UHGV virus genome: UHGV-1375876
Direction: 5' to 3' (one strand)
Length of the DNA stretch: 45,898 nt
DNA from: a virus
Shown: piece by piece, positions 10,513-24,329 of the stretch
How positions within the stretch are numbered: position 1 is the stretch's first letter
How the letters are laid out: each line of letters begins with the position of its first letter
Made by a program: the position numbers and the translations under genes
Notes under the pieces: model-generated
The model's database searches: none
What the model was told of the DNA's origin: nothing
What the model saw: only the letters and a program-made list of their open reading frames with translations

Positions 10513-11142
10513 ATGGATTTGAAAGTCGAACAGTGGCCTATTGATCGCTTGATCCCCTATGCGAGAAACCCGCGCAAAAATGATGCGCAGGTTGACCGTA
10601 TGTGCGCCGCAATTCTGGAATTCGGATTCCGTATCCCTATTGTTGCGCGTTCTGACGGTAGTATCGTTGACGGACACCTGCGTCTGAAAGCCGCCCGGAA
10701 GCTGGGCTTGAAAGATGTTCCCGTAGCTCTTGCCGACGAGCTGAGTGATGTGCAGGTCAAGGCTTTCCGACTGCTTGCAAACCAATCGGCAAATTGGGCT
10801 GAATGGGATAACGAACTTTTGGCCCTTGAGCTTGAAGAACTCAAAGCATCTGATTCGGGCATTATCTCGATGATGGAGTCGGATAGCTATGTCACTGGTC
10901 CCGTAAATATCGGCAACCCTGAAGAAATCACGATCTTGGAGCTTGCCAAGACGATAATCGAAAAAGTGCGGTCCTCGTCAAAAATTGTATTCCGGCCTAT
11001 CCCTGACGATGACCCCACGCGGCGCGTCCCCGACATCGGCAAGGCGTCCGCGTTTCTGGGGTTTAAGCCGACAACGAGCTTGGATGAGGGGCTTGAACTG
11101 ACGATTCCATACTACATCAACCTGCGCAGAGGCGTTCAATGA
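10513..11142 (+). CDS. chimeric ORF: N-terminal ParB-like nuclease domain fused in frame to a C-terminal fragment of an NAD-dependent sugar epimerase/dehydratase (UDP-glucuronate decarboxylase/UXS-like)
   Basis: Residues 1-115 carry a ParB/Srx-like motif (IPYARNPRKND..IVDGHLRLKAARKLG). Residues from about 125 (GPVNIGNPEEITILELAKTII..IVFRPIPDDDPTRRVPDIGKA..LGFKPTTSLDEGLELTIPYY) match the conserved C-terminus of UXS/ArnA-type dehydratases. Confidence 0.6.
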   Translation: MDLKVEQWPIDRLIPYARNPRKNDAQVDRMCAAILEFGFRIPIVARSDGSIVDGHLRLKAARKLGLKDVPVALADELSDVQVKAFRLLANQSANWAEWDNELLALELEELKASDSGIISMMESDSYVTGPVNIGNPEEITILELAKTIIEKVRSSSKIVFRPIPDDDPTRRVPDIGKASAFLGFKPTTSLDEGLELTIPYYINLRRGVQ

Positions 11143-11543
11143 GTGGCGGCAGGCCTGCGATAAAACGATGCAAAGAAAAGGCCTCGCTTGTAGAGGTGAT
11201 GGCTCAATACGGCGTACCGCAGGATGAAATTGCCGCAAAGATCGGCATGTCTGCTGATACGATGGTGAAGCTCTACAAAAAAGAGCTACTTTCCGGGAGG
11301 ACAAACGCTAATTTCAAAGTGGGAAAGCGACTGTTTGATAAAGCCATGTCGGGGGATACAACGGCCCTCATTTTCTGGGCAAAGACCCGGATGGGGTGGA
11401 GAGAGACGCAAAAAGTCGATCTTTCCAGTTCCGATGGAACGATGTCGCCTGTACCAGCACTTGAACTTTCCCATCTTTCTCCCGATGATCTGCTCAAGCT
11501 GACGCGGGAAGCCTTCAAAGAGACGGAGAGGAATGGCGGGTGA
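11139..11543 (+). CDS. terminase small subunit
   Basis: HTH-containing protein of about 134 aa immediately upstream of the large terminase. ATGA coupling on the upstream side. Confidence 0.65.
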   Translation: MSGGRPAIKRCKEKASLVEVMAQYGVPQDEIAAKIGMSADTMVKLYKKELLSGRTNANFKVGKRLFDKAMSGDTTALIFWAKTRMGWRETQKVDLSSSDGTMSPVPALELSHLSPDDLLKLTREAFKETERNGG

Positions 11544-14500
11544 GACGCTTGCTGAAATCCGCCGTGCGCTGGCCAGGAGCTGCATGGCGGCCTTCGTGCG
11601 CCACACCATGCCCGCCTACCGCATGGGCTGGGTGCATGAGGAGGTTTGTGCCGAACTGGACGCCTTTCTTGCCGATGTCGTAGCCGGGCGTTCCCCGCGT
11701 CTCATGCTGACCATGCCCCCGCGTCACGGGAAACTGTGCGCTGATGATACTCCTGTTTTGACGGTTGATGGGTGGAAAACTCATGGTGCGCTTAAGGTTG
11801 GTGATTATGTATTTCACCCAAGTGGCAAACCTGTGAGGGTTGTTGCTGTGGGCGAGAAAAATTTTGCCACTCATTCTGTTGTTTTTACCAATGGCGACAT
11901 AATAGATGTGCACCTTGATCATGAGTGGCGGGTGTATGACAGGACTAAACCCGGATATAGAACAGTTGAGACACGATACTTTGTGGAGCCAAGCAAAAAA
12001 ACTAAGGCGCTTAGGAAGCTGGATAGCGGTATCCCAGACACCAGAGGGCACAGGTATTTGTATCAGGTGGACACAGCTGATGCTCCCCAATGGCCTGCCG
12101 TAGAACACGTTATCCCGCCATACGTTTTGGGCGTGTGGTTAGGTGATGGAACGTCAATCGCGCCCAGAATAAACATGGCTCCTGATGACGCTTGTGTCGT
12201 CAAAATGGAGTTTGAACGACTAGGTGTGCCAATAACTGGAACATGGGTGCATAGAGATACTGGAGTTGAAACTTTTTCATTTGCCAGCGGCGTGAAAAAT
12301 AGAAGAAATATATTTTCGCAGGCTCTAAAAGATGCTGATCTGCTAAAAAATAAACATATTCCTAATGAGTACAAGCATGATAGCCTAGAAAACAGGCTTG
12401 ACTTGCTTGCTGGACTTATTGATACGGATGGTCATTTTGATAGAAAGACAAACAGATATCGTTTTACAACATCCAATGAGCTGTTAGCGCATGATGTAGA
12501 AGAATTGGCCATGCTATGCGGGTTTGTAGCGCATACAAATATCCCAGCACTAGATAATCGGGAAAGAACGATTAAAAATAAGTCACAGGTTTATGTGGTG
12601 TCATTTTTCTTTTCCGGTGTAGTTGTCCCGTGCAGACTTGAACGGAAAAAAGTTAATAAAACGTTTTCTTCTCTGCGTCGGCGCGTATCCATCAAATGTG
12701 TACGAGCGCTAGAGTCGCCTAAAATGGGGAATTGTATTCAGGTGGATAGTCCAGATGGCTTATATTTAGTTGGCAAACACCTTACGATAACCCACAATAG
12801 CGAGCTGGCCTCCCGCCGCTTCCCGGCCTACGCCTTGGGCCGCTACCCCGATCTATCCGTCATTTCAACGAGCTACGCCGCCGACCTGTCCTCGCGCATG
12901 AACCGCGATGTTCAGCGTGTCATCGACAGCCCGGAATACCGGGAACTCTTCCCGGGAACAGCCCTTTACGGCAAGAATATCCGCACCGTCGGGAACGGCT
13001 CTTATCTCCGCAACTCGGATATCTTCGAAATCGTGGGGCACGCTGGCTGCTACCGTTCCGCTGGCGTGGGCGGCGGCATCACGGGCATGGGTGGGCATAT
13101 CGTCATCGTCGACGACCCGTTCAAGGACCGGGCGTCCGCCGATTCCCCGACCATCCGCCAGAACGTCTGGGACTGGTACACGTCCACGTTGTACACGCGC
13201 CTCGCGCCCGGTGGAGGGGTGCTCATCATCAACACTCGCTGGCACATGGCTGACCTTTCCGGGCGGCTGCTTGAGGCCGCCGCACGGGGGGAGGGCGACC
13301 ACTGGCGCGTGGTAAACTTCCCGGCCATCGCCACGGAGGATGAGCCGCACCGCAAGGCAGGTGAAGCCTTACACCCTGAACGCTACCCGTTGGAGCAGCT
13401 TCTTGCCATCAAGAAAGCCCTCGGCACACGCGACTGGGAGGCCCTGTACCAGCAGCGGCCTACGCCAGACGGCGGCGCCATCTTCAAATCCGAGTGGCTG
13501 CGGTTCTGGCTCCCCAAAGACCTGCCGGAGCAGTTCGACCAGCTCCTTATCTCGTGGGATATGACGTTCAAGGACGGCGACGATACCGACTTTGTTGTGG
13601 GGCAGGTGTGGGGCCGCAAGGGGGCAGACCGCTACCTCCTCGATCAGGTCCGGCGGCGCATGGGATTTACGGACACGGTCGCCGCGTTCCGAGCGCTCGC
13701 CGCTAAATGGCCCGGCGCAACCCGTAAGCTGGTGGAGGATAAGGCCAACGGCCCGGCGGTCATCGACGCGCTGAAACACGCCGTGCCCGGTATCATCCCC
13801 GTGGAGCCGGACGGCAGCAAGACGGCTCGCGCCCATGCTGTGACCACGTTCTTCGAGGCCGGGAACGTCCTTATCCCGCACCCTGAGCATTGCCCGTGGG
13901 CGCGGGAGTACGTCGCGGAACTGACGCAGTTCCCCGGAGCGCCCCACGACGATCAATGTTTTGCTGCAGGCACTTTAGTTGCGACTTTGCGAGGGGGTAT
14001 CCCAATTGAAAAAGTAAAGGAAGGTGATTTTGTTGTGACTCCTCAAGGGTTTAGGCGTGTGTTGTTCGCTGGAAAAACCGGAGAGTCTGTGTTATTGTAT
14101 CGACATGGAATTTTTGCAACTGCGAATCATCCGTTCATGAAAACCAGTGGAGAAGTTTGCAAATTTGCAGAAATAGAAAAGTCTGAACTTGTTCACATGA
14201 CTATAAGGGAGTTGCTAGTATGGATATTCCGAAAAGAGTTGAATTTAATGGCGTCACCTATGCCCTCATGGCAGGGGGGAAATACTATCTTAGTCAGTCA
14301 AAAACAAACGCAGGTAGGAAAAATCCGAAGGGGCTTCATGTCGCTATTTGGGAATACTACAGTGGCAAGAAAGTCCCTAAAGGGTATGAGATTCATCACA
14401 AAGATGGTAATACACATAACAACAATTTTGACAACCTTGAGTGTTTATCACGTTGTGAACACCGCAAAACGGTTAAGCAAAACAAAGAAAAATGCCGTAA

Positions 14501-15021
14501 GCACCTTGAAGAAGTACGCCCTCTTGCTACTGAGTGGCACAGGAGCGAAGAAGGCCGTGCATGGCATCGAGAGCAAAGCAGGAAGGCATACGCAAAAAGA
14601 GAGTATACTGAGCATGTTTGTGAGTACTGCGGCAAGACGTATAAAACGCGCCATACGGGAAAAAACCGCTTCTGTTCCCATAATTGTGAAATCAAATGGC
14701 GATATCACAATGAATACGAGCTTGCCGAGGGTGTGTGCCAATGGTGCGGCAAACCGTTCACATACAAGACCGGAACCTGCAGAAAAAACAAAGTACGTAA
14801 ATTCTGCAGCAAGTCTTGCAGCACAAGCCACTTCAACGCCCAACGCCGTGCCAGTGTATAACCTCACCGTAGAGGGCGAGCACCTTTATTTTGCTAATGG
14901 GGTGCTCGTCCACAATTGTGACGCCACCACTCAGGCCCTCCGCGACTTCGACGCCAAACGCCCCATGTCTATCAATCCTGCTATCCTCACTCAACCACGT
15001 ATAGGGTATCGCTTCCGGTAA
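11533..15021 (+). CDS. terminase large subunit precursor interrupted by two inteins (extein about 488 aa)
   Basis: Exteins carry P-loop PPRHGK..S, Walker B IVIVDDPF and nuclease HDD motifs. One continuous 1162-aa frame spans two Hint-type insertions. Confidence 0.85.
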   Translation: MAGETLAEIRRALARSCMAAFVRHTMPAYRMGWVHEEVCAELDAFLADVVAGRSPRLMLTMPPRHGKLCADDTPVLTVDGWKTHGALKVGDYVFHPSGKPVRVVAVGEKNFATHSVVFTNGDIIDVHLDHEWRVYDRTKPGYRTVETRYFVEPSKKTKALRKLDSGIPDTRGHRYLYQVDTADAPQWPAVEHVIPPYVLGVWLGDGTSIAPRINMAPDDACVVKMEFERLGVPITGTWVHRDTGVETFSFASGVKNRRNIFSQALKDADLLKNKHIPNEYKHDSLENRLDLLAGLIDTDGHFDRKTNRYRFTTSNELLAHDVEELAMLCGFVAHTNIPALDNRERTIKNKSQVYVVSFFFSGVVVPCRLERKKVNKTFSSLRRRVSIKCVRALESPKMGNCIQVDSPDGLYLVGKHLTITHNSELASRRFPAYALGRYPDLSVISTSYAADLSSRMNRDVQRVIDSPEYRELFPGTALYGKNIRTVGNGSYLRNSDIFEIVGHAGCYRSAGVGGGITGMGGHIVIVDDPFKDRASADSPTIRQNVWDWYTSTLYTRLAPGGGVLIINTRWHMADLSGRLLEAAARGEGDHWRVVNFPAIATEDEPHRKAGEALHPERYPLEQLLAIKKALGTRDWEALYQQRPTPDGGAIFKSEWLRFWLPKDLPEQFDQLLISWDMTFKDGDDTDFVVGQVWGRKGADRYLLDQVRRRMGFTDTVAAFRALAAKWPGATRKLVEDKANGPAVIDALKHAVPGIIPVEPDGSKTARAHAVTTFFEAGNVLIPHPEHCPWAREYVAELTQFPGAPHDDQCFAAGTLVATLRGGIPIEKVKEGDFVVTPQGFRRVLFAGKTGESVLLYRHGIFATANHPFMKTSGEVCKFAEIEKSELVHMTIRELLVWIFRKELNLMASPMPSWQGGNTILVSQKQTQVGKIRRGFMSLFGNTTVARKSLKGMRFITKMVIHITTILTTLSVYHVVNTAKRLSKTKKNAVSTLKKYALLLLSGTGAKKAVHGIESKAGRHTQKESILSMFVSTAARRIKRAIREKTASVPIIVKSNGDITMNTSLPRVCANGAANRSHTRPEPAEKTKYVNSAASLAAQATSTPNAVPVYNLTVEGEHLYFANGVLVHNCDATTQALRDFDAKRPMSINPAILTQPRIGYRFR
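11737..12798 (+). mobile_element. intein 1 (354 aa) in the terminase ATPase P-loop, with a LAGLIDADG homing-endonuclease domain
   Basis: Starts CADDTPVLTVDGW and ends LTITHN with S at +1. LAGLIDADG motifs are LGVWLGDGT and LLAGLIDTDGHF. Markedly AT-richer than the flanking sequence. Confidence 0.75.
13957..14916 (+). mobile_element. intein 2 (320 aa) in the terminase nuclease HDD motif, carrying a nested HNH endonuclease ORF in another frame
   Basis: Starts CFAAGTLVATLRGG after HDDQ. Ends VYNLTVEGEHLYFANGVLVHN with C at +1. Block B is TANHPF. AT-rich. Confidence 0.75.
14220..14861 (+). CDS. HNH homing endonuclease with C-terminal Zn-finger repeats, free-standing ORF nested inside intein 2
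   Basis: HNH motif GYEIHHKDGNTHNNNFDNLECLSRCEHR, followed by multiple CxxC pairs. It has its own AAGGGAG Shine-Dalgarno and ATG. It is in the +2 frame relative to terminase, while the terminase frame stays open. Confidence 0.75.
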   Translation: MDIPKRVEFNGVTYALMAGGKYYLSQSKTNAGRKNPKGLHVAIWEYYSGKKVPKGYEIHHKDGNTHNNNFDNLECLSRCEHRKTVKQNKEKCRKHLEEVRPLATEWHRSEEGRAWHREQSRKAYAKREYTEHVCEYCGKTYKTRHTGKNRFCSHNCEIKWRYHNEYELAEGVCQWCGKPFTYKTGTCRKNKVRKFCSKSCSTSHFNAQRRASV

Positions 15022-15025
15022 ACTC

Positions 15026-15043
15026 CGAACCTTGTTCACGGTG
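15026..15043 (+). promoter_or_regulatory. conserved 18-mer CGAACCTTGTTCACGGTG, copy 2, upstream of the portal/head operon
   Basis: Identical to copies 1, 3 and 4. It lies 33 nt before the portal ATG. Confidence 0.55.
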
Positions 15044-15076
15044 TAAATTCTTCTTCGCTCATAGCATGATGCCCTC

Positions 15077-16627
15077 ATGAGCAAGAAGCGCACTTATCGC
15101 CACGCTACCTCCATAGCCCCGCAAGCCGTGCAGCCGTCGCGCCGTCTGAATCTCTCCCCGGACGTGCGCGGCGGCCTTGCTCAACCTTTGCCACCTACGC
15201 CCGAAGACATCAGCCGGTTGTACGGTCCTGCGAAGACGCTCGGCGCGCCCGAAGATGTGCAGCTTGCGATGGATGCGCGGCTTGCGGATTCCGGCGTCTA
15301 TTCCCTGCTCCAGCACTCGCTTGAGCTTGGGGTCGGGATTGCGCCGCAATTCATGGGCTACGGCGTCCTCCAGAACCTTGCCCAGAACGGCCTGATCCGT
15401 GCCTGCGTCGAGACGGTATCCGACGATATGACCCGAGCGTGGATTGAGTTCAAGCGCGAAGGGGAGGGCGGCGACGAATCATTGCTCACCGACCTTGCGC
15501 AGGCGTGCAAGCGGTTCGCCCTGCAACGCCTTTTCCATGAGGCGACCGAGCTTGTGGGGTACGAGGGTGGGGCCTTCCTTTTCATCGACACCGGGTCCGT
15601 CGGCCAAGAGCTGGAACGCCCGCTGAACGTCAGCCCGTATTCCGCCGAACTCAGGCCCGGCGGCGTGCTGCGCTTCGTCGTCATCGACCCCGTGAACGTC
15701 TTCCCCGGCGACTACAACAGCCTTTCGCCGCTTGAGCCGGACTACTTCCGCCCGCGTTGGTGGTGGGTGCTCGGGAAGCGGGTGCACGCCTCTCGCCTCA
15801 TCCGATTGGTTGCGAACGAATGCCCGGTGCTGCTGCGGCCCGCCTACAATTTCCTAGGCATCCCGCAGGCCCAGATCCTCTGGGATTACGTCCTGCATTT
15901 TCAGGAATGCCGCGCCGCCGAAGCCCGGCTACTGACCAAGTTTTCGCTGACCGTCTTCAAGACGAAGATGGAAGACATCCTGTACGCGGCCGGGGGCACG
16001 GCACAGATCGATACCCGCATCCGGTACATGATTCAGACCATGACCAATGACGGCGTGCTTGCCGTCGACAAAGAATCGGAAGACGTGGTCAAGCTGGAAA
16101 CCCCGCTTTCAGGCGTGACCGACATCGTGCGCCAGTCCCTTGAAATCCTCGCCGCCCTGAACCGAACCCCGGCGGTCAAGCTGCTCGGCATCAGCCCGTC
16201 AGGGTTCAATGCCACGGGCGAATCGGATATCCGTAACTATTACGATCATGTCAGGAGCCAGCAGGAGAAAGTCCTGCGCGACGGCATCAAGAAGGCGCTC
16301 GACTGTATCCAGCTCTACCTGCGCGGAACCATCGACCCTTCCGTGACTTTCGACTTCGCGCCCCTCGGCGAAGAGGATAGGGCGGCCCTTGCGACGCTCC
16401 AGAAGACCAAGGCCGACACCATCGCCGTCTACATGGATCGGGACATCATCTCTCAGGAAGAAGCCCGGCAATCCCTTGCCAGTGACCCGGACAGCGGCTT
16501 CTCCGACATCGACCCGGCGGAAGTGCCGCAGGGCAACGGAATGCCTGACGCCCTGCCGGAAACCGGGGAAGAGGGATTGATGCCCGACATCGACGATGTG
16601 GACAAGGCCGGGGCCGTCTATGGCTAA
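15077..16627 (+). CDS. portal protein (putative)
   Basis: 516 aa. It follows the large terminase and precedes the head morphogenesis protein. Acidic C-terminus. Confidence 0.65.
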   Translation: MSKKRTYRHATSIAPQAVQPSRRLNLSPDVRGGLAQPLPPTPEDISRLYGPAKTLGAPEDVQLAMDARLADSGVYSLLQHSLELGVGIAPQFMGYGVLQNLAQNGLIRACVETVSDDMTRAWIEFKREGEGGDESLLTDLAQACKRFALQRLFHEATELVGYEGGAFLFIDTGSVGQELERPLNVSPYSAELRPGGVLRFVVIDPVNVFPGDYNSLSPLEPDYFRPRWWWVLGKRVHASRLIRLVANECPVLLRPAYNFLGIPQAQILWDYVLHFQECRAAEARLLTKFSLTVFKTKMEDILYAAGGTAQIDTRIRYMIQTMTNDGVLAVDKESEDVVKLETPLSGVTDIVRQSLEILAALNRTPAVKLLGISPSGFNATGESDIRNYYDHVRSQQEKVLRDGIKKALDCIQLYLRGTIDPSVTFDFAPLGEEDRAALATLQKTKADTIAVYMDRDIISQEEARQSLASDPDSGFSDIDPAEVPQGNGMPDALPETGEEGLMPDIDDVDKAGAVYG

Positions 16628-20806: not shown

Positions 20807-21028
20807 TCATTTTCCAAGCTGCTGTATATTTGCGTCCAGCCACATCTCGACTGCTTCCCGTACTACCTGTGAGCGTAGGATACCCCTATCCGTACATATA
20901 TCGTTCAGCCGTTCCCAGACATGATCCGGCATAGATACAGTCTTTACTGTTGCACGATCTTCAACCTTTTTTTTACGTCCAGATCCTTTGCGGCGGCCTC
21001 CGTGTTTTTTTTCTTGCGCGTCACTCAT
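20807..21028 (-). CDS. ribbon-helix-helix (CopG/Arc-like) DNA-binding protein with a K/R-rich N-terminal tail
   Basis: RHH-like core VKTVSMPDHVWERLNDICTDRGILRSQVVREAVEMWL. It is the second gene of a two-gene unit with 21143..21647. Confidence 0.55.
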   Translation of the reverse strand: MSDAQEKKHGGRRKGSGRKKKVEDRATVKTVSMPDHVWERLNDICTDRGILRSQVVREAVEMWLDANIQQLGK

Positions 21029-21142
21029 CCGTTGCGTCTCCCTTCATCAAAAAGCTATCTCCTTCCCATTGGCTGCGCCAGAATTATCCTTATTGAGTTG
21101 ACTGTCTTCGAGCTGAAATCGATAAGATCGTCGATGTCTATC

Positions 21143-21647
21143 TTAGTCTTCCTCTTCATCGTCTGCCTCCGTTGACGCTTGCAGCTTTATGAACTCGGGA
21201 AGAACCGCGATACTTCCACATTCGTCATCCATTCCAACAGCCTTGAAGCCCAACTTACGGGCAAAGGCGATACGCATGGCCTGAGCCTCCCAACCCGCGT
21301 CGTCCTCGTCCATTCCGAGAAGGTCTGCCCAGTCTTCCCGTTCTTGAAAGTCCAGTTCTTCCGAAACCACGGCTTGCCAGCATAGATCAAAATGGATTTC
21401 GTCTATCCCGCGCTCTTCCATAATTTCACGTAGAGCCGTTCCCGCAGCACCGTCATCAAGATACGGAAGGTCTTCCGTAAAAAAGATATCCTTGACGTCT
21501 ACTTCGCACTGGTAGACGTAATCTCCGTATCCCTTTGCTGTTCCATACGTGCGGGCAAAGAACATCGCTCCGAAGTTATACCCTAACCCTGTTCCTGAGT
21601 TAGATATAGCCAAATGTTCAATCATGCTTCCGTGGTACAGCTTCATG
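21143..21647 (-). CDS. Arr-like/PARP-like (H-Y-E class) mini ADP-ribosyltransferase domain fused to an acidic C-terminal domain
   Basis: The N-terminal MKLYHGS...GYNFGAMFFAR...GDYVYQCEV aligns with the HGT, YFSA and GYIYIVEP motifs of Arr and PARP catalytic cores. The C-terminus is very acidic (EADDEEED). AAAGGAGAAG Shine-Dalgarno. Confidence 0.4.
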
Positions 21648-21690
21648 GTGGCTTCTCCTTTACCCTTTCGTTGAAAATACAATAGCACCA

Positions 21691-21724
21691 TTTTTTGAAA
21701 AAATAAACAATTTTTTCAAAAAAA
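21691..21724. promoter_or_regulatory. AT-rich perfect inverted repeat TTTTTTGAAAAAA-N7-TTTTTTCAAAAAAA upstream of the ART-like gene (candidate operator)
   Basis: 13/14-bp arms are exact reverse complements. It lies 45-75 nt upstream of the ART start. Confidence 0.5.
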
Positions 21725-21769
21725 GTTTTATCTTTTTTAACTCGTCAGTAACAGAAGGGAGAGGCAGAA

Positions 21770-21803
21770 AAACAAAAAGGGGCGGCTCTTAAAGCCACCC
21801 CTT
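21770..21803 (-). terminator. rho-independent terminator after gene 21825..22136
   Basis: On the minus strand the hairpin GGGGTGGCT-ttaag-AGCCGCCCC is followed by TTTTTGTTTTT. Confidence 0.65.
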
Positions 21804-21824
21804 TTCTACGATATTCTTTCTTTA

Positions 21825-22136
21825 TTAGAATCCGAGCCAGCCGAAGCCCTTGGCCATAACGGCGACAAGTGCAAACCCTATGGCGATTTGCCATTTCAAA
21901 AGATCATACTTGACCTTCAACACTTCAGCACGAATTTTTTCGATCTCCGCTTGCACTTTCAGGTCCAATTCCCGAATTTCTTTTTGCAACCGCAGTTCCG
22001 TTTCGCGCAGATCTCCCTTGGTGGCACTGGCGTTCCTTTGGCTCTCGTCAAAGCGTTCCAGTACTTCCACGATGGCTTTTGCGGCTTCCTCGCCGACGGC
22101 CTTTTCAAGCTTTTTTCCATCATCGAACAGCAACAT
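21825..22136 (-). CDS. coiled-coil protein with a C-terminal transmembrane anchor
   Basis: GGAGGGA Shine-Dalgarno. Heptad-rich sequence and the hydrophobic C-terminal tail LLKWQIAIGFALVAVMAKGFGWLGF. Confidence 0.45.
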   Translation of the reverse strand: MLLFDDGKKLEKAVGEEAAKAIVEVLERFDESQRNASATKGDLRETELRLQKEIRELDLKVQAEIEKIRAEVLKVKYDLLKWQIAIGFALVAVMAKGFGWLGF

Positions 22137-22191
22137 GGGGGAATCCCTCCGTTGGTGAAGTCTTATATGATTCATGCAGGCTTGCCAAGGA

Positions 22192-23112
22192 TTACCCTAG
22201 CATCAACCTGTTTGCCGTCTTCGCGGCACGGATTGCCGCTCTCATTTCCGAGATTCCCGCGTCAATCCACGTCTGGGCGTTGTACGAGTTGGATTGCAGG
22301 ATGCCGAGGAGCGGGTCTTTCGAGATGTTCTGCCGGGAACATATCCGGTTCAGCAATTCGGGATAAGTGCTCTCCTTGACGCGCAGGAGCTCGTTGACGA
22401 ATTGGTGCAGCCGGGAGCGGGTTTCCCCCGCGAATTCGATCCATTCCTCTTCGAGGCGGTCGAGGGCCTTCATGCGGTCGGCGTAAATTGAAGAGGCGGG
22501 AAGCACCGGGGTACGGGCGGGGGCGGGCACAGCGGGGAGAGCGTCAATCTTTGCCTGTACCCACTGAATAGCCTCCTTAACCTGCGCTACGGTCAGGGCG
22601 TCCACAGAAGTGACGCCGAAATGGGCGTTTACCTGCGCACGGGCCGAGGCGTAGTGAATCGGGGCCATGCCCACCCATGTGTTGATGATGGCGGTAAGCG
22701 CCTTACGTTCCGGGTCGGTACGCTTGGAAATGGGAGAAGGGGTGGGGAATGGAACGGGCTTGACTTCATATCGTCCCGTCTTACGGATGGATGGCACGAC
22801 TTCCGAAGCAATCCAGTTGGTGAAAGCGTCCGCTTCTGGCTTATTGGAGCGGAAGGCCAGTTTGTACACAGCGGGCTCAATTATGGCTCTAACCTGTTGA
22901 TTTCCTGAGGGGGTGGTAAGTTTTACCAACCCTTTCCAATCAGCAGGAATGGCATCAAGGGTATGCCCTGTCCAACCGATATTGAGCGCAGAGCAAATAT
23001 CTCTGGCGACGAACCAGAGCGTTTCGCCTTTAAGTTGGGTACGGATAGGGTGATTTTGAAACTGAAAGGGAGGTACGGGGGATACTTCGGAGAGAAGTTC
23101 GGCTTGAGACAT
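22192..23112 (-). CDS. Bro-N domain protein (phage antirepressor-like)
   Basis: Bro-N signature ..GETLWFVARDICSALNIGW..AFTNWIASEVVPSIRKTG. TAGGAG Shine-Dalgarno at the internal ATG. Confidence 0.6.
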   Translation of the reverse strand: MSQAELLSEVSPVPPFQFQNHPIRTQLKGETLWFVARDICSALNIGWTGHTLDAIPADWKGLVKLTTPSGNQQVRAIIEPAVYKLAFRSNKPEADAFTNWIASEVVPSIRKTGRYEVKPVPFPTPSPISKRTDPERKALTAIINTWVGMAPIHYASARAQVNAHFGVTSVDALTVAQVKEAIQWVQAKIDALPAVPAPARTPVLPASSIYADRMKALDRLEEEWIEFAGETRSRLHQFVNELLRVKESTYPELLNRICSRQNISKDPLLGILQSNSYNAQTWIDAGISEMRAAIRAAKTANRLMLG

Positions 23113-23624
23113 GGTAAAACTCCTATGTTTGATCTGAATTGCGCTTTTCAAAAAAAGAAAAGCGCCGGGTGTTCAGAACGGCCATAGGAACCGCTGGCGG
23201 CCTTTAGCTTTCGCTTGGACATATCCGCCACACCCGGCAAACATTGGATGCAATCATAGCCCAAAAGACAGCCAAGAAAAATCTTGACTTTCATAAAAGG
23301 GCACAAAAAAGCGCCATGCTGTCGGGTGGCTTACCGCCTATGGTCGGGGTTCTGAAGCCCGTGCACAAAAGACAGCACAAAACTCTGAAAATGTAAAGAG
23401 AAAAGCAGTGGCGTTGCCCGCATCTGGATGTTCTTCATCTGCATTGGCGGACAACGCCACGTTGGAAGTTTTACTTGTTATCGTATTTCAAGGCCGTAGC
23501 CCGGATTCGATCCGCAAAGGGAATAATATCTTCCATCCCAGATTCTTTACCTTTTTCGACAATTCAGCAATTCTTTCCGAAAAATCCATGGTCCTCTCTC
23601 CCTGTTCGGATTCAAGTTAATATA

Positions 23625-24224
23625 TTAAGATTTATATATTTTCTTATAGGTTTTCCAAGAATACAGTCCGGAAAGGATAGTGAGGATTCCCCATAACAAG
23701 GCCCCATTCGTATTGGGCGGCGTTTGGAGGGCACAACTCAGCCACAATACGGCTAGCACTACTGTTATCAGCACTCCAATGATAAGGGCAATTTTTTTAG
23801 GGGGCGTCTGAGAACGTTCATGATGTATAAGCGGGTTTGGTTCTCCACGCTCTTGGGCCAATTGGTCATCAAAAAGATAGGCACGGATAACCTCCATCAT
23901 GGGGCTATTTACTTTTGCCAATGCCTTATTTCCATTTTTGAACTCAATAATGACGGTAGACTCAGTTGTCTTGCCTCCAGCTACCGCACCCGCAACCGCT
24001 CCGATGCCTCCAAGCAAGACGCCGCCGACAAGCGCGCCCCCCAAGGTCCCTCCGAGTTTTTTTACCGATTCCTCGTTGGCTACTTCACAAGAGGCAATAC
24101 TGGAAAGAAAAAGTTCCTTTGCTCCAAACATTTTTGAAGAGCAACGCAACTGGTTTTTATTTTTAATGTAAATATATTCTTCTTTCCCGTAGTCCCCTGC
24201 CAGAAATTTGATGTAGGTAGCCAT
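23625..24224 (-). CDS. membrane protein with a glycine-zipper segment and C-terminal TM helices (accessory gene)
   Basis: GGTLGGALVGGVLLGGIGAVAGAVAGG followed by two hydrophobic helices. It is distinctly AT-rich relative to the rest of the genome. AAGGGGGATGATG Shine-Dalgarno. Confidence 0.5.
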   Translation of the reverse strand: MATYIKFLAGDYGKEEYIYIKNKNQLRCSSKMFGAKELFLSSIASCEVANEESVKKLGGTLGGALVGGVLLGGIGAVAGAVAGGKTTESTVIIEFKNGNKALAKVNSPMMEVIRAYLFDDQLAQERGEPNPLIHHERSQTPPKKIALIIGVLITVVLAVLWLSCALQTPPNTNGALLWGILTILSGLYSWKTYKKIYKS

Positions 24225-24329
24225 ACATCATCCCCCTTATATTATAGATGAGGCTATCATGGCATAGGCCGTTCCAAAAATCCACCGCCGCCGCCCTCCG
24301 CCCCGAAAGGGGCTTTTCTTTTGCCTGTA

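Follow-up and report, generated by a model that had tools for sequence, protein, structure and literature searches.

The large terminase gene (terL) of the viral genome UHGV-1375876, whose 45,898 nucleotides form the window analysed here, is interpreted with good confidence, predicted splicing, nested HNH gene and homing included, as a composite in which an essential packaging gene harbours two inteins, each mobile in its own right; the second of these hosts an HNH endonuclease gene in a different reading frame. A sequence-only reading of the window had proposed this arrangement; its observation is confirmed and its interpretation supported as largely right, with the structural claims holding except for one boundary of intein 1.

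The terL precursor ORF (11533..15021, plus strand, as for all features below) encodes 1162 amino acids with matches to Pfam Terminase_6N and Terminase_6C, and splicing out both inteins is predicted to leave a mature protein of 487 aa. The exteins align contiguously with intein-free homologues. The N-terminal half of the Walker A motif or P-loop, PPRHGK, lies at 11716..11733; the middle extein (12799..13956) contains the remaining ATPase, including Walker B (IVIVDDP, 13099-13119), and the RNase H-like nuclease as far as PHDDQ (13942-13956). The C-extein (14917..15021, stop codon included) begins with the +1 Cys followed by DATTQAL, and its +1 codon is TGT (Cys) here versus GTG (Val) in intein-free alleles. 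Both inteins are AT-richer, as had been noted, with a GC content of 0.438 (intein 1) and 0.447 (intein 2) against about 0.65 in the two main extein segments and 0.56 in the short C-extein. The intein-free allele sought among relatives is present in P0121 (a cluster of 966 sequences), where a 491-aa, 95% identical terL has both sites empty, and relative to it the two inteins are precise in-frame insertions. Their interpretation as ordinary terminase domains is rejected, homologous terminases, this allele among them, being devoid of the segments.

Intein 1 (11734..12798, 355 aa) interrupts Walker A between Lys and Ser. It starts with Leu68 and ends with THN|S, and exactly 1065 nt are missing at this site in alleles L095, L096, L098 and L086, intein-free alleles reading PRHGK|SELASR. 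The earlier placement at 11737..12798 was correct at its end, but the start lies one codon further upstream. The P-loop position and the LAGLIDADG motifs reported for it hold: two such blocks occur at 12127-12153 and 12403-12435, in frame, and Pfam assigns LAGLIDADG_3 (terL residues 289-337) and Hom_end. According to the published definition (PMC5050341) the element is a class 3 (WCT) intein, with W132 in LDHEW (11914-11928), C401 in GNCIQV (12727-12744) and T420 in LTITHN (12781-12798). W, C and T-H-N are invariant in an alignment with terL inteins of Gordonia, Bacteroides and Mycobacterium, in which position 1 varies (L/E/A) as does position 2 (C/V/L/L); given the class 3 assignment, Cys69 should not be the splicing nucleophile. 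The WCT triplet, the non-nucleophilic first residue, the in-frame LAGLIDADG endonuclease and the "classic" site between the Walker A Lys and Ser/Thr are shared with the mycobacteriophage P-loop inteins of Kelley et al. 2016 (PMC5050341). Intein 1 is about 30-38% identical to the inteins of actinophages and Bacteroides phages, and its host gene, instead of a mycobacteriophage terminase, is a terL of the Terminase_6 type from what is probably a Desulfovibrionaceae phage.

Intein 2 (13957..14916, 320 aa) occupies the terminase nuclease motif HDDQ|xDA, and its boundaries and the position of its Hint blocks in the terL frame agree with the sequence-only reading. It is a class 1 Hint intein running from Cys1 through TANHPF to VYNLTVEGEHLYFANGVLVHN|C. 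Exactly 960 nt are missing in L095, L096 and L097, and the unoccupied target in intein-less terL reads CCCCACGACGACCAAGTGGACGCCACAACA. Pfam reports Hint_2 (terL residues 809-846) and Intein_splicing, the latter below its curated cut-off, and NCBIfam intein_Cterm matches residues 1107-1129. In the AlphaFold2 model, intein residues 1-88 and 295-321 are beta-rich (block-mean pLDDT mostly 63-89), and Foldseek matches the model to the gp41-1 mini-intein 6QAZ (E 7e-5). The intein possesses no in-frame endonuclease domain; its splicing subdomains flank a read-through linker (14221..14853, about 210 codons, stop-free), and the approximately 630 nt between them are occupied by an overprinted gene.

This nested gene (14220..14861, 213 aa) is offset by +2 to terL, the recomputed value of (14220-11533) mod 3 being 2 as originally claimed, and matches HNH_3 with an E-value of 1.3e-15. 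Its product contains an HNH motif (14382-14462), a WHxSEEGRxWH motif (14532-14567) and, corresponding to the zinc-finger repeats recognised earlier, two zinc ribbons with CxxC...CxxxC repeats (14619-14687 and 14736-14819). It is a separate ORF, as had been stated, but the label "free-standing" is better replaced by overprinted gene nested in an intein. The proposed Shine-Dalgarno sequence AAGGGAG is located at 14205..14211, 8 nt before the ATG, where the terL frame reads Arg-Glu; of 37 related clusters, about 20 have a similar motif (AAGGAG, AGGGAG) ahead of the HNH ATG, and the RNA around the ribosome-binding site is unstructured (z +1.55). A promoter and terminator scan found nothing above expectation. 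Intein block F (VYN) supplies the TAA stop of the gene through its Tyr-Asn codons. The modelled protein has a pLDDT of 92.9, and among solved structures the homing nickase I-HmuI comes closest to it. At the protein level conservation is restricted to the HNH frame, with 38 columns at least 80% conserved versus three in the terL frame, and among the HNH-frame codon positions the third is the most variable (0.63 vs 0.47 and 0.42). These data and the model point to a real protein-coding frame for an I-HmuI-like endonuclease of the HNH_3 type, which is presumably expressed.

Indel errors commonly produce out-of-frame domains, and gene callers are confused at such loci (terL is uncalled in L085 and L086), so that a canonical in-frame HNH intein shifted by sequencing or assembly errors might be considered. 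Such an artefact has practically no likelihood: it needs two compensating frameshifts, one per end, whereas the HNH frame has its own Shine-Dalgarno sequence and, 30 nt ahead of its ATG, a stop codon. At least six independent assemblies contain the sequence in identical or near-identical form, and the same offset is found in 37 of the 45 non-redundant viral HNH clusters and in 29 of 52 prokaryotic GTDB genome loci (archaea and CPR bacteria included); four GenBank phages (Clostridium phiCDHM19, Acinetobacter Highwayman, Tetrasphaera TJE1 and Rhodobacteraceae LS06) have the out-of-frame layout too. Among the best 120 HNH relatives listed (all 118-266 aa), none is fused in frame to Hint or terminase. 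Recurrence and the need for two compensating shifts effectively refute a frameshift artefact. GC content of the HNH genes ranges from 27 to 62% among recurring loci, and the family is present in phages and prophages from many bacterial phyla and archaea.

Across the HNH ORF, 22 stops occur in the third frame and none in the terL frame, the latter count agreeing with the earlier statement that the terminase frame stays open across some 640 nt. A paucity of Leu, Ile, Val and Met in the HNH protein could make stops rare in the terL frame anyway, its openness then being a by-product of composition without any selection. Only 2.5-4.6 stops are expected, and the probability of finding none is 0.006 under codon shuffling and, under synonymous resampling, 0.0026 with uniform codon usage but 0.057 with the gene's own usage; judged on the present sequence alone, a chance open frame is thus only moderately excluded. 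Comparison among relatives, however, makes chance untenable and leaves the composition explanation exceedingly improbable. The frame is stop-free in every contiguous intein (37 viral clusters and 29 genome loci), while about 29 HNH homologues in split inteins or in free-standing genes each have 1-13 stops there. NTA/NTG codons make up 4.3% in nested HNH genes, 7.7% in free-standing genes and 9.2% in split-intein relatives, their use being roughly halved in the nested genes. L070 holds the other, usually stop-rich frame open, with 0 stops against 12.7-15.6 expected (P<5e-5) and no T-ending codon ahead of AA, AG or GA codons. The pattern argues for a terL frame maintained open by selection, as the sequence-only reading suggested, with HNH codon choice avoiding terL-frame stops. 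The linker so encoded is predicted to be disordered over about 200 aa (pLDDT about 36, below 50 for intein residues 96-294), and an insert of this kind, which is also hydrophobic in part, might hinder splicing or make it slower.

An uninterrupted frame would be irrelevant if intein 2 were a split intein in a fractured gene, with two polypeptides joined by trans-splicing. Precisely this arrangement occurs among relatives: in L080, in L083 and in at least 11 genome loci the Hint-N ORF stops at the HNH start and, in several cases, Hint-C begins in a separate ORF; it is also the architecture of Dassa et al. 2009 (PMC2677866). For the present copy it is very improbable, as no terL-frame stop lies between the Hint halves, and zero stops across dozens of lineages would be unexplained were read-through unimportant. 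Because the terL frame is uninterrupted, a single precursor and cis-splicing are expected.

Alleles of a terL lineage of about 86-98% protein identity carry the inteins in different combinations: besides the empty P0121, there are alleles with intein 2 alone (P0122, P0124) or intein 1 alone (P0125), and L086 and L005 possess a third, Walker-B intein together with intein 2. Intein 2 DNA is 99.9-100% identical between alleles with 81-98% identical exteins, and intein 1 is 100% identical to that of L097 although the exteins are 78-94% identical; near-identical inteins in diverged exteins indicate recent transfer. This bears on whether the nested HNH has ceased, or never served, to be a homing endonuclease, as a decaying passenger in a mini-intein or a packaging factor of the HK97 gp74 type. 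HNH genes beside terminase genes are common packaging accessories (PMC3592412). In the sister alleles L086-L089 an HNH Trp that is otherwise almost invariant is replaced (W115G), and the HNH reading frame is broken in L044, which suggests that the nuclease is decaying in part of the family, and it could be inactive in the present copy as well. A non-homing role is nevertheless unlikely: the HNH is dispensable for packaging, since it is absent along with the intein from the 95% identical, far commoner intein-free allele, and the copy studied here retains all family-invariant residues, with a confident model (pLDDT 93), the homing nickase as nearest structure and the recent transfer of intein 2 together with its HNH.

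The following course, from splicing of the protein and translation of the HNH gene to nuclease specificity and homing, is inferred. The terL mRNA would be translated in one frame straight through to the 1162-aa precursor, from which intein 1 would excise between Lys and Ser of Walker A and intein 2 from HDDQ|(C)DA, both excisions yielding the 487-aa terminase. The same stretch of about 630 nt would be read twice: at offset +2, from its own Shine-Dalgarno sequence and ATG, as the folded 213-aa HNH protein with two zinc ribbons, and in the terL frame as a loop of about 200 aa, meaningless and probably disordered, which the Hint domain would tolerate at the position where an endonuclease is usually inserted. 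In co-infecting phages or prophages, intein-less terL is the most likely target of the HNH protein, to be nicked or cut at the insertion site or close by; the ensuing repair would copy the intein along with its HNH gene. As terL is essential, any terL-frame stop in the HNH stretch would be lethal, and HNH codons would therefore be constrained to few NTA/NTG before purine-starting codons.

The same layout is described in a 2025 preprint on actinophages, in which contiguous inteins contain an Endonuclease VII-like nuclease out of frame between the splicing blocks; the terminase large subunit is one of four host protein types for these non-canonical inteins, and the authors propose that a free-standing endonuclease gene invaded an intein. 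Splicing blocks in the extein frame, an endonuclease on the same strand at offset +2 and an in-frame read-through without recognisable structure are common to those inteins and intein 2. The nuclease, however, is Endonuclease_7 (PF02945; Keitabear, E 9e-20) there and HNH_3 (PF13392) with zinc ribbons here, and the preprint inteins, at 795 nt, are much shorter and differ in their Hint sequences. The preprint reports neither stop avoidance at the codon level nor the alternative register nor split variants. The split inteins of Dassa et al. 2009 (PMC2677866), with phage terminase among their hosts, likewise place between their Hint-N and Hint-C parts a homing endonuclease gene that has its own start and is free-standing there, its 3' end overlapping the Hint-C coding region; in contrast, the host frame is uninterrupted here, and those endonucleases are GIY-YIG and Vsr-like rather than HNH. 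Unlike in canonical HNH inteins, with their in-frame HNH, the nuclease is no domain of the intein polypeptide. I-HmuI, the HNH nickase of phage SPO1 (PDB 1U3E), sits in a group I intron instead of an intein and has no counterpart of the C-terminal double zinc ribbon. The ShiLan domain (Arsenault et al. 2025, PMC11855218), an HNH insert lying out of frame in the DNA methylase of a mycobacteriophage, also hides an alternative-frame HNH gene in a stop-free host frame, but it lacks Hint or splicing blocks and is thought to be retained in the protein, whereas the insert here lies within a complete intein and is presumably removed.

An HNH_3 family in such an intein at the terminase nuclease-domain site appears to be previously undescribed. 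The preprint survey covers actinophages only and calls its type rare, in contrast to the HNH_3 family, which occurs in many bacterial phyla and archaea; the layout spans phages of many bacteria and archaea, and descriptions of it are scarce so far.

The large terminase (terL) ORF occupies 11533..15021 on the plus strand (1,162 aa), with a small-terminase-sized ORF (11139..11543) on one side and a Phage_portal_3 gene (15077..16627) on the other. Pfam and NCBIfam models locate Terminase_6N and Terminase_6C in this ORF, together with a LAGLIDADG_3/Hom_end segment (residues 276-374), Hint_2 (residues 809-846) and an intein C-terminal splicing region (residues 1107-1129). The two inserts each have a GC content of 0.44, against ~0.65 in the two main extein segments and 0.56 in the short C-extein, and their conceptual removal leaves an extein of 487 aa, which served as query for homologues. 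Intein-free alleles, which the sequence-only reading had proposed to look for, exist at both sites. The homologue P0121 (491 aa, from a cluster of 966 sequences) is 95% identical to the spliced extein and possesses neither intein, and the intein-free terL of Proteus phage RS51pmB (50% identity) aligns unbroken over both insertion sites. Since these homologues align through both sites, a reading of the inserts as ordinary terminase domains is excluded.

Intein 1 was read earlier as a LAGLIDADG intein of the P-loop starting at 11737. Its location and endonuclease type stand, but its start does not: DNA comparison with other alleles reveals an insertion of exactly 1,065 nt between ...CACGGGAAA and AGCGAGCTG... 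(PRHGK/SELAS, the slash marking the junction), and because this insert begins with Leu68, intein 1 spans 11734..12798 on the plus strand. Class 3 inteins lack an N-terminal nucleophile and possess Trp at position 12 of block B, Cys at position 4 of block F and Thr at position 5 of block G (PMC5050341). In an alignment with the terL inteins of Gordonia phage ViaConlectus, Bacteroides phage B124-14 and Mycobacterium phage LittleE, the block B Trp (LDHEW), the block F Cys (GNCIQV) and the block G Thr-His-Asn are all invariant. Position 1 is L/E/A, position 2 (Cys69 in the window) is V/L/L in the homologues, and the C-terminal junction reads TITHN/S. The invariant W, C and T-H-N, combined with variable positions 1 and 2, thus indicate a class 3 intein (WCT signature). 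The endonuclease domain is in frame, with the motifs LGVWLGDGT and LLAGLIDTDGH and Pfam matches to LAGLIDADG_3 (28.6 bits, cut-off 22.5) and Hom_end (21.4 bits, cut-off 21.1). Intein 1 separates the Lys and Ser of Walker A, a position described as the 'classic' P-loop site in PMC5050341, and is an ordinary representative of a known kind.

Intein 2 (13957..14916) is an insertion of exactly 960 nt between ...GACGATCAA and TGTGAC... (HDDQ/CDA), missing in the related loci L095, L096 and L097. The empty allele (P0121/L095) reads ...CCCCACGACGACCAA/GTGGACGCCACAACA..., i.e. GTGGAC and HDDQ/VDATT, with Val in the position where the intein-bearing allele has its +1 Cys. The terL frame contains Cys1 (C809), block B TANHPF and block F/G VYNLTVEGEHLYFANGVLVHN, followed by Cys+1, which corresponds to the class 1 motif series C809 ... 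TANH(PF) ... VLVHN/C1129; class 1 inteins are defined by a Cys or Ser nucleophile at the N-terminus, TxxH in block B, and a C-terminal His-Asn before a +1 Cys, Ser or Thr. Among related clusters Cys1 is present in 37 of 37, and a terminal Asn followed by Cys or Ser in nearly all. Pfam matches Hint_2 at its cut-off and Intein_splicing under its cut-off, while NCBIfam intein_Cterm scores 33 bits (cut-off 15.6). Insertion, motifs and intein_Cterm agree with the sequence-only reading, which had placed intein 2 at the nuclease HDD motif with its Hint blocks in the terL frame. The AF2 model was built from a shallow alignment of 21 sequences, because the linker is not conserved and the search with the terL-frame protein yielded 28 homologues. 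Residues 1-88 (pLDDT 71-89) and 295-321 (pLDDT 63-86) are modelled as beta-rich, residues 96-294 with pLDDT below 50 (mean ~36). The confident part resembles the mini-inteins gp41-1 (6QAZ, E 7e-5), MchDnaB-1 and Npu DnaB, which points to a Hint fold. By motifs, modelled fold and precise insertion relative to the empty allele, intein 2 fits class 1 and is a predicted splicing element.

The linker of intein 2 covers a separate gene. The nested HNH ORF (14220..14861, plus strand, 213 aa) lies wholly within terL at offset +2, covers intein 2 residues 88-302 and matches Pfam HNH_3 (PF13392, E 1.3e-15), a family model that recognises the HNH (His-Me finger) catalytic motif in the predicted protein. 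AAGGGAG sits 8 nt 5' of its ATG, and its relatives conserve, without exception or almost so, the HNH motif, the WHxSEEGRxWH motif and the eight Cys that make up two zinc ribbons. A +2 ORF with its own Shine-Dalgarno, an HNH motif and Zn-finger repeats had been described from the sequence, and its coordinates and these features are confirmed; the profile searches suggested at that time find HNH_3 here and LAGLIDADG_3 plus Hom_end in intein 1. AF2 models the HNH-frame protein with a mean pLDDT of 92.9 and no residue below 50. The terL-frame translation of intein 2 has no HNH match in Pfam, and its linker peptide is predicted to be disordered; with the frames differing as well, intein 2 is not a canonical HNH intein. 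HNH_3 is the sole endonuclease domain in the 120 listed best of 176 HNH homologues (118-266 aa), and a Hint-HNH or terminase-HNH fusion, sought as an in-frame form of the family, was not found among these 120. Programmed frameshifting that joins HNH to the intein is rejected by reasoning only, because it requires two shifts and the HNH gene has its own stop-bounded start and Shine-Dalgarno.

The nested gene ends with a TAA that straddles two codons of the intein VYN block, taking its T from the third position of Tyr and its AA from the first two positions of Asn, a geometry (VY/N or VY/D) present in about half of the related loci. Many relatives keep its ribosome-binding site as AAGGAG or AGGGAG, which encodes Lys/Arg-Glu in their terL frame. 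RNA folding around the HNH start reveals no hairpin that hides the ribosome-binding site (z +1.55), so a translational hairpin of the Gibb/Edgell type is unsupported in this unstructured region. An internal promoter is likewise unsupported: counts from a sigma-70 promoter and terminator scan of 11000-15500 do not exceed the shuffle expectation. Several otherwise identical intein 2 copies (related loci L086-L089) differ from the window in the HNH frame solely by W115G (window position 14562), which affects a nearly invariant Trp of WHxSEEGRxWH; the window keeps the consensus Trp, and the L086-L089 copies may be inactive.

Across the nested ORF the terL frame contains no stop, against 22 in the other remaining same-strand frame. 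Judged from the window alone, ~2.5-4.6 stops are expected in the terL frame and the probability of none is 0.003-0.06 depending on the null model, which is moderate evidence for selection over chance. The comparative sequence data argue decisively for it. Codon shuffling of 37 nested viral clusters predicts 1.2-6.9 stops per locus where 0 are observed, and homologues that are free-standing or flanked by separately encoded Hint halves carry 1-13 stops in the corresponding frame (0 of ~29 are stop-free). NTA/NTG codons make up 4.3% in nested genes; the figure is 7.7% for free-standing relatives and 9.2% for split ones. The earlier proposal that the terL frame is kept open by selection is borne out by these zero-stop contiguous loci, their controls and this codon avoidance. 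Amino-acid identity over the same codons of 630 nested-gene pairs is 0.40 in the HNH frame versus 0.23 in the terL frame; variability is highest at the third HNH codon position (0.63 versus 0.47 and 0.42), and 38 columns are conserved at 80% or more in the HNH frame versus 3 in the terL frame. From these conservation and codon data, selection acts on the HNH frame for its protein and on the terL frame only to remain stop-free. Explanations by sequencing artefact, chance, trans-splicing, or a non-homing or decayed HNH are weak or excluded.

The nested layout is widespread. In four unrelated GenBank phages, tblastn with the HNH protein of the window finds a match within the CDS annotated as terL: Clostridium phiCDHM19 (31% GC), Acinetobacter Highwayman, Tetrasphaera TJE1 and Rhodobacteraceae LS06-2018-MD07. 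All four have HNH at offset +2, an open terL frame and Hint blocks on both sides. In IMG/VR, 572 stretches encode tblastn-confirmed HNH relatives. The best 80 of these, combined with the four GenBank phages, form 45 clusters at 85% identity, 37 of which have HNH nested in a contiguous terL intein without terL-frame stops (HNH GC 27%-57%). An independent scan of GTDB genomes yields the nested, stop-free layout in 29 of 52 loci, with hosts including Sutterella, Nostoc, Bacteroides, Prevotella, Corynebacterium, Nitrospiraceae, Planctomycetes, Patescibacteria, Thermoplasmatales, Woesearchaeota and Thorarchaeota. At least three Pfam families are represented among the host terminases (Terminase_6, Terminase_3 and T7-type RNase H-like). 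Insertions in the bulk of loci are located just before the conserved Asp-Ala of the C-terminal nuclease motif (e.g. ...HDDx/CDA... or ...NH/CIDAxRY...), with a few variant sites. In L150 and L151 (contigs of Falkowbacteria and Shapirobacteria) a 1,403-aa ORF with a Hint-N match contains the nested HNH and stays open across it; this host protein may be other than a simple terminase.

Gene calling at the related loci L085 (4346-6811) and L086 (3371-6811) yields the HNH ORF together with spurious ORFs on the antisense strand, and leaves out the terminase; in annotated phages, e.g. those of C. difficile, the terminase is called and the hidden nuclease is not. Intein-bearing terL genes with nested HNH are likely under-annotated in metagenomes.

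Three layouts deviate from this pattern. L070 (3601-4605) is a contiguous terL intein whose HNH_3 gene uses the alternative register (terL frame = HNH frame +2). This normally stop-rich register has 0 stops versus 12.7-15.6 expected (P<5e-5), because T-ending codons before AA, AG or GA codons are wholly avoided. A rough tree of the HNH proteins, built by neighbour joining without support values and not used for split-versus-contiguous polarity, places L070 with the normal-register L071 and L073. In L044 (2194-2817) a stop soon after the HNH ATG breaks the HNH frame and the terL frame is open throughout; it looks like an endonuclease decaying in an intein still able to splice, the order of decay expected once homing ceases. 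Fractured terL, encoded as separate pieces, occurs in L080 and L083 and also in at least 11 loci from genomes (L108, L117, L120, L127, L131, L133, L134, L143, L144, L148 and L155), most of them of Firmicutes. Here the terL-N/Hint-N ORF stops at the HNH start, the former linker frame contains 1-12 stops, and several of the loci have a further, separate ORF, matching Hint-C, that overlaps the 3' end of HNH or comes after it.

Within the terL lineage of the window, intein 2 occurs alone in P0122 and P0124, and intein 1 alone in P0125. A third intein at Walker B occurs alone in P0225 and together with intein 2 in L086 and L005. Copies of intein 2 from the window, L005, L086 and L098 share 99.9-100% DNA identity, with 81-98% identity in the exteins; intein 1 is 100% identical to L097, with exteins of 78-94%. 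Near-identical inteins in diverged exteins, combined with the allele series, are the classic signature of recent horizontal spread; this identity and the presence/absence polymorphism hint indirectly at site-specific cleavage of the empty allele and homing by the HNH. L005, an IMG/VR locus with identical HNH, is not the window's own contig, as it has the Walker B intein in place of intein 1.

L086 and L005 represent a sister terL (~94% protein identity overall, extein DNA ~83-98%) without the P-loop intein. Their Walker B intein (L086 3869-4889; GMGAE/C...VLVHN/CAIIDDP) contains in its linker, at L086 4017-4835, an out-of-frame ORF of 272 aa at offset +1 to terL with Zn-ribbon repeats and a Pfam HNH match (PF01844, 22.3 bits), a second, unrelated overprinted nuclease within this lineage.

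According to the proposed mechanism, a single terL precursor would be translated through the linker and both inteins would splice out, restoring Walker A and the nuclease motif. HNH would be made separately from its own ribosome-binding site in unstructured RNA and would target and cleave intein-less terL alleles. The window phage carries RecT and PD-(D/E)XK nuclease genes, which, we infer, could act in recombinational repair. The sequence-only reading is supported overall, with corrections of one codon and of the class of intein 1.

Actinophage inteins with an antisense endonuclease, or with one 'in reading frame 3 relative to the intein', are the subject of Gosselin, Arsenault & Gogarten (bioRxiv 2025); the latter type is Endonuclease VII-like and presented there as previously unreported. 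Directly comparable reports besides this were not found in open-access full text and bioRxiv. The window shares with their type D a same-strand, out-of-frame endonuclease between the splicing blocks of a contiguous intein; it differs in nuclease family, which is Endonuclease VII-like (IPR004211 / PF02945) in type D and PF13392 in the window. Their Keitabear intein, as translated here, has offset +2 and PF02945, and differs from intein 2 also in Hint sequence. Tblastn with the window HNH retrieves no actinophage of this PF02945 type at E<=1e-5. Being PF02945, the frame-3 endonuclease does not belong to the HNH family of the window. The in-frame HNH inteins of the same study are unrelated to intein 2, occurring in other genes and being by eye of the classic HNH type PF01844, and in the ShiLan element of the Gosselin/Gogarten group the out-of-frame HNH is not accompanied by an intein. 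A fractured-gene layout was reported by Dassa et al. (2009), who found it with GIY-YIG and Vsr-like nucleases and predicted HNH to be capable of the same. The relatives L080, L083, L131 and others show its stop after Hint-N and probably its separate Hint-C start; the window, which lacks any terL-frame stop, does not. Papers that tie terminases of C. difficile phages or TJE1 to inteins were not found in open-access full text and bioRxiv. The out-of-frame-endonuclease intein architecture is only recently known; what appears new against that literature is the HNH_3 family, its site in the nuclease domain, its breadth, the avoidance of stops at codon level, the second register and the coexistence with split forms.

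Some further features of the window are AT-rich or chimeric. Just upstream of the small terminase gene, within a local GC dip, ORF 10513-11142 combines a ParB_N domain (residues 5-90) with ~95 final residues matching SDRs of the UDP-glucuronate decarboxylase type in their C-terminal part (4LK3, E 4e-17); capture of a host gene fragment or an assembly chimera may account for it. Another AT-rich stretch (21000-24300, GC ~0.46 versus 0.56-0.62 in its surroundings) contains minus-strand ORFs, one of them Bro-N/GemA-like (22192-23151), and the ORFs tested there lack a nuclease or intein signature. The extein homologues P0166, P0178 and P0210 (72-75% identity) are annotated as phage terminases of Desulfovibrio sp. 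MAGs, and an HNH identical to that of the window is found in metagenome assemblies (incl. L132). The window probably represents a Desulfovibrionaceae phage.

In textbook inteins the homing endonuclease is an in-frame domain. Intein 2 is a member of a large uncharacterised family in which a stand-alone nuclease gene overprinted on a junk linker constitutes a stable and very widespread alternative, with most sampled loci among the 572 IMG/VR relatives nested and hosts ranging from Clostridioides to archaea and CPR bacteria. In annotation, the essential terminase is missed in some assemblies at nested-HNH loci. Of interest for protein and genome engineering are inteins predicted to tolerate an unstructured ~200-aa insert, and putative HNH nickases that combine site specificity with modular zinc ribbons. 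The natural series of free, split and contiguous forms in two registers bears on endonuclease acquisition by inteins and on split-intein origin, and provides a test bed for intein-origin models. Our fullest reading is a tentative one, which we hold with more doubt than confidence: a large family of terminase inteins, undescribed so far and very widespread phylogenetically, with an I-HmuI-like HNH permanently overprinted on the linker in either register (L070 versus the rest), with free-standing, split and contiguous forms as living intermediates, and with an overlap that may adjust the expression of HNH to the translation of terL. Should the polarity lead from a free-standing gene through invasion of a mini- or split intein to the contiguous overprinted form, the family would provide direct natural evidence for 'splicing domain first, endonuclease acquired later', and overlapping-frame constraint, not domain fusion, could stably couple an endonuclease to an intein.
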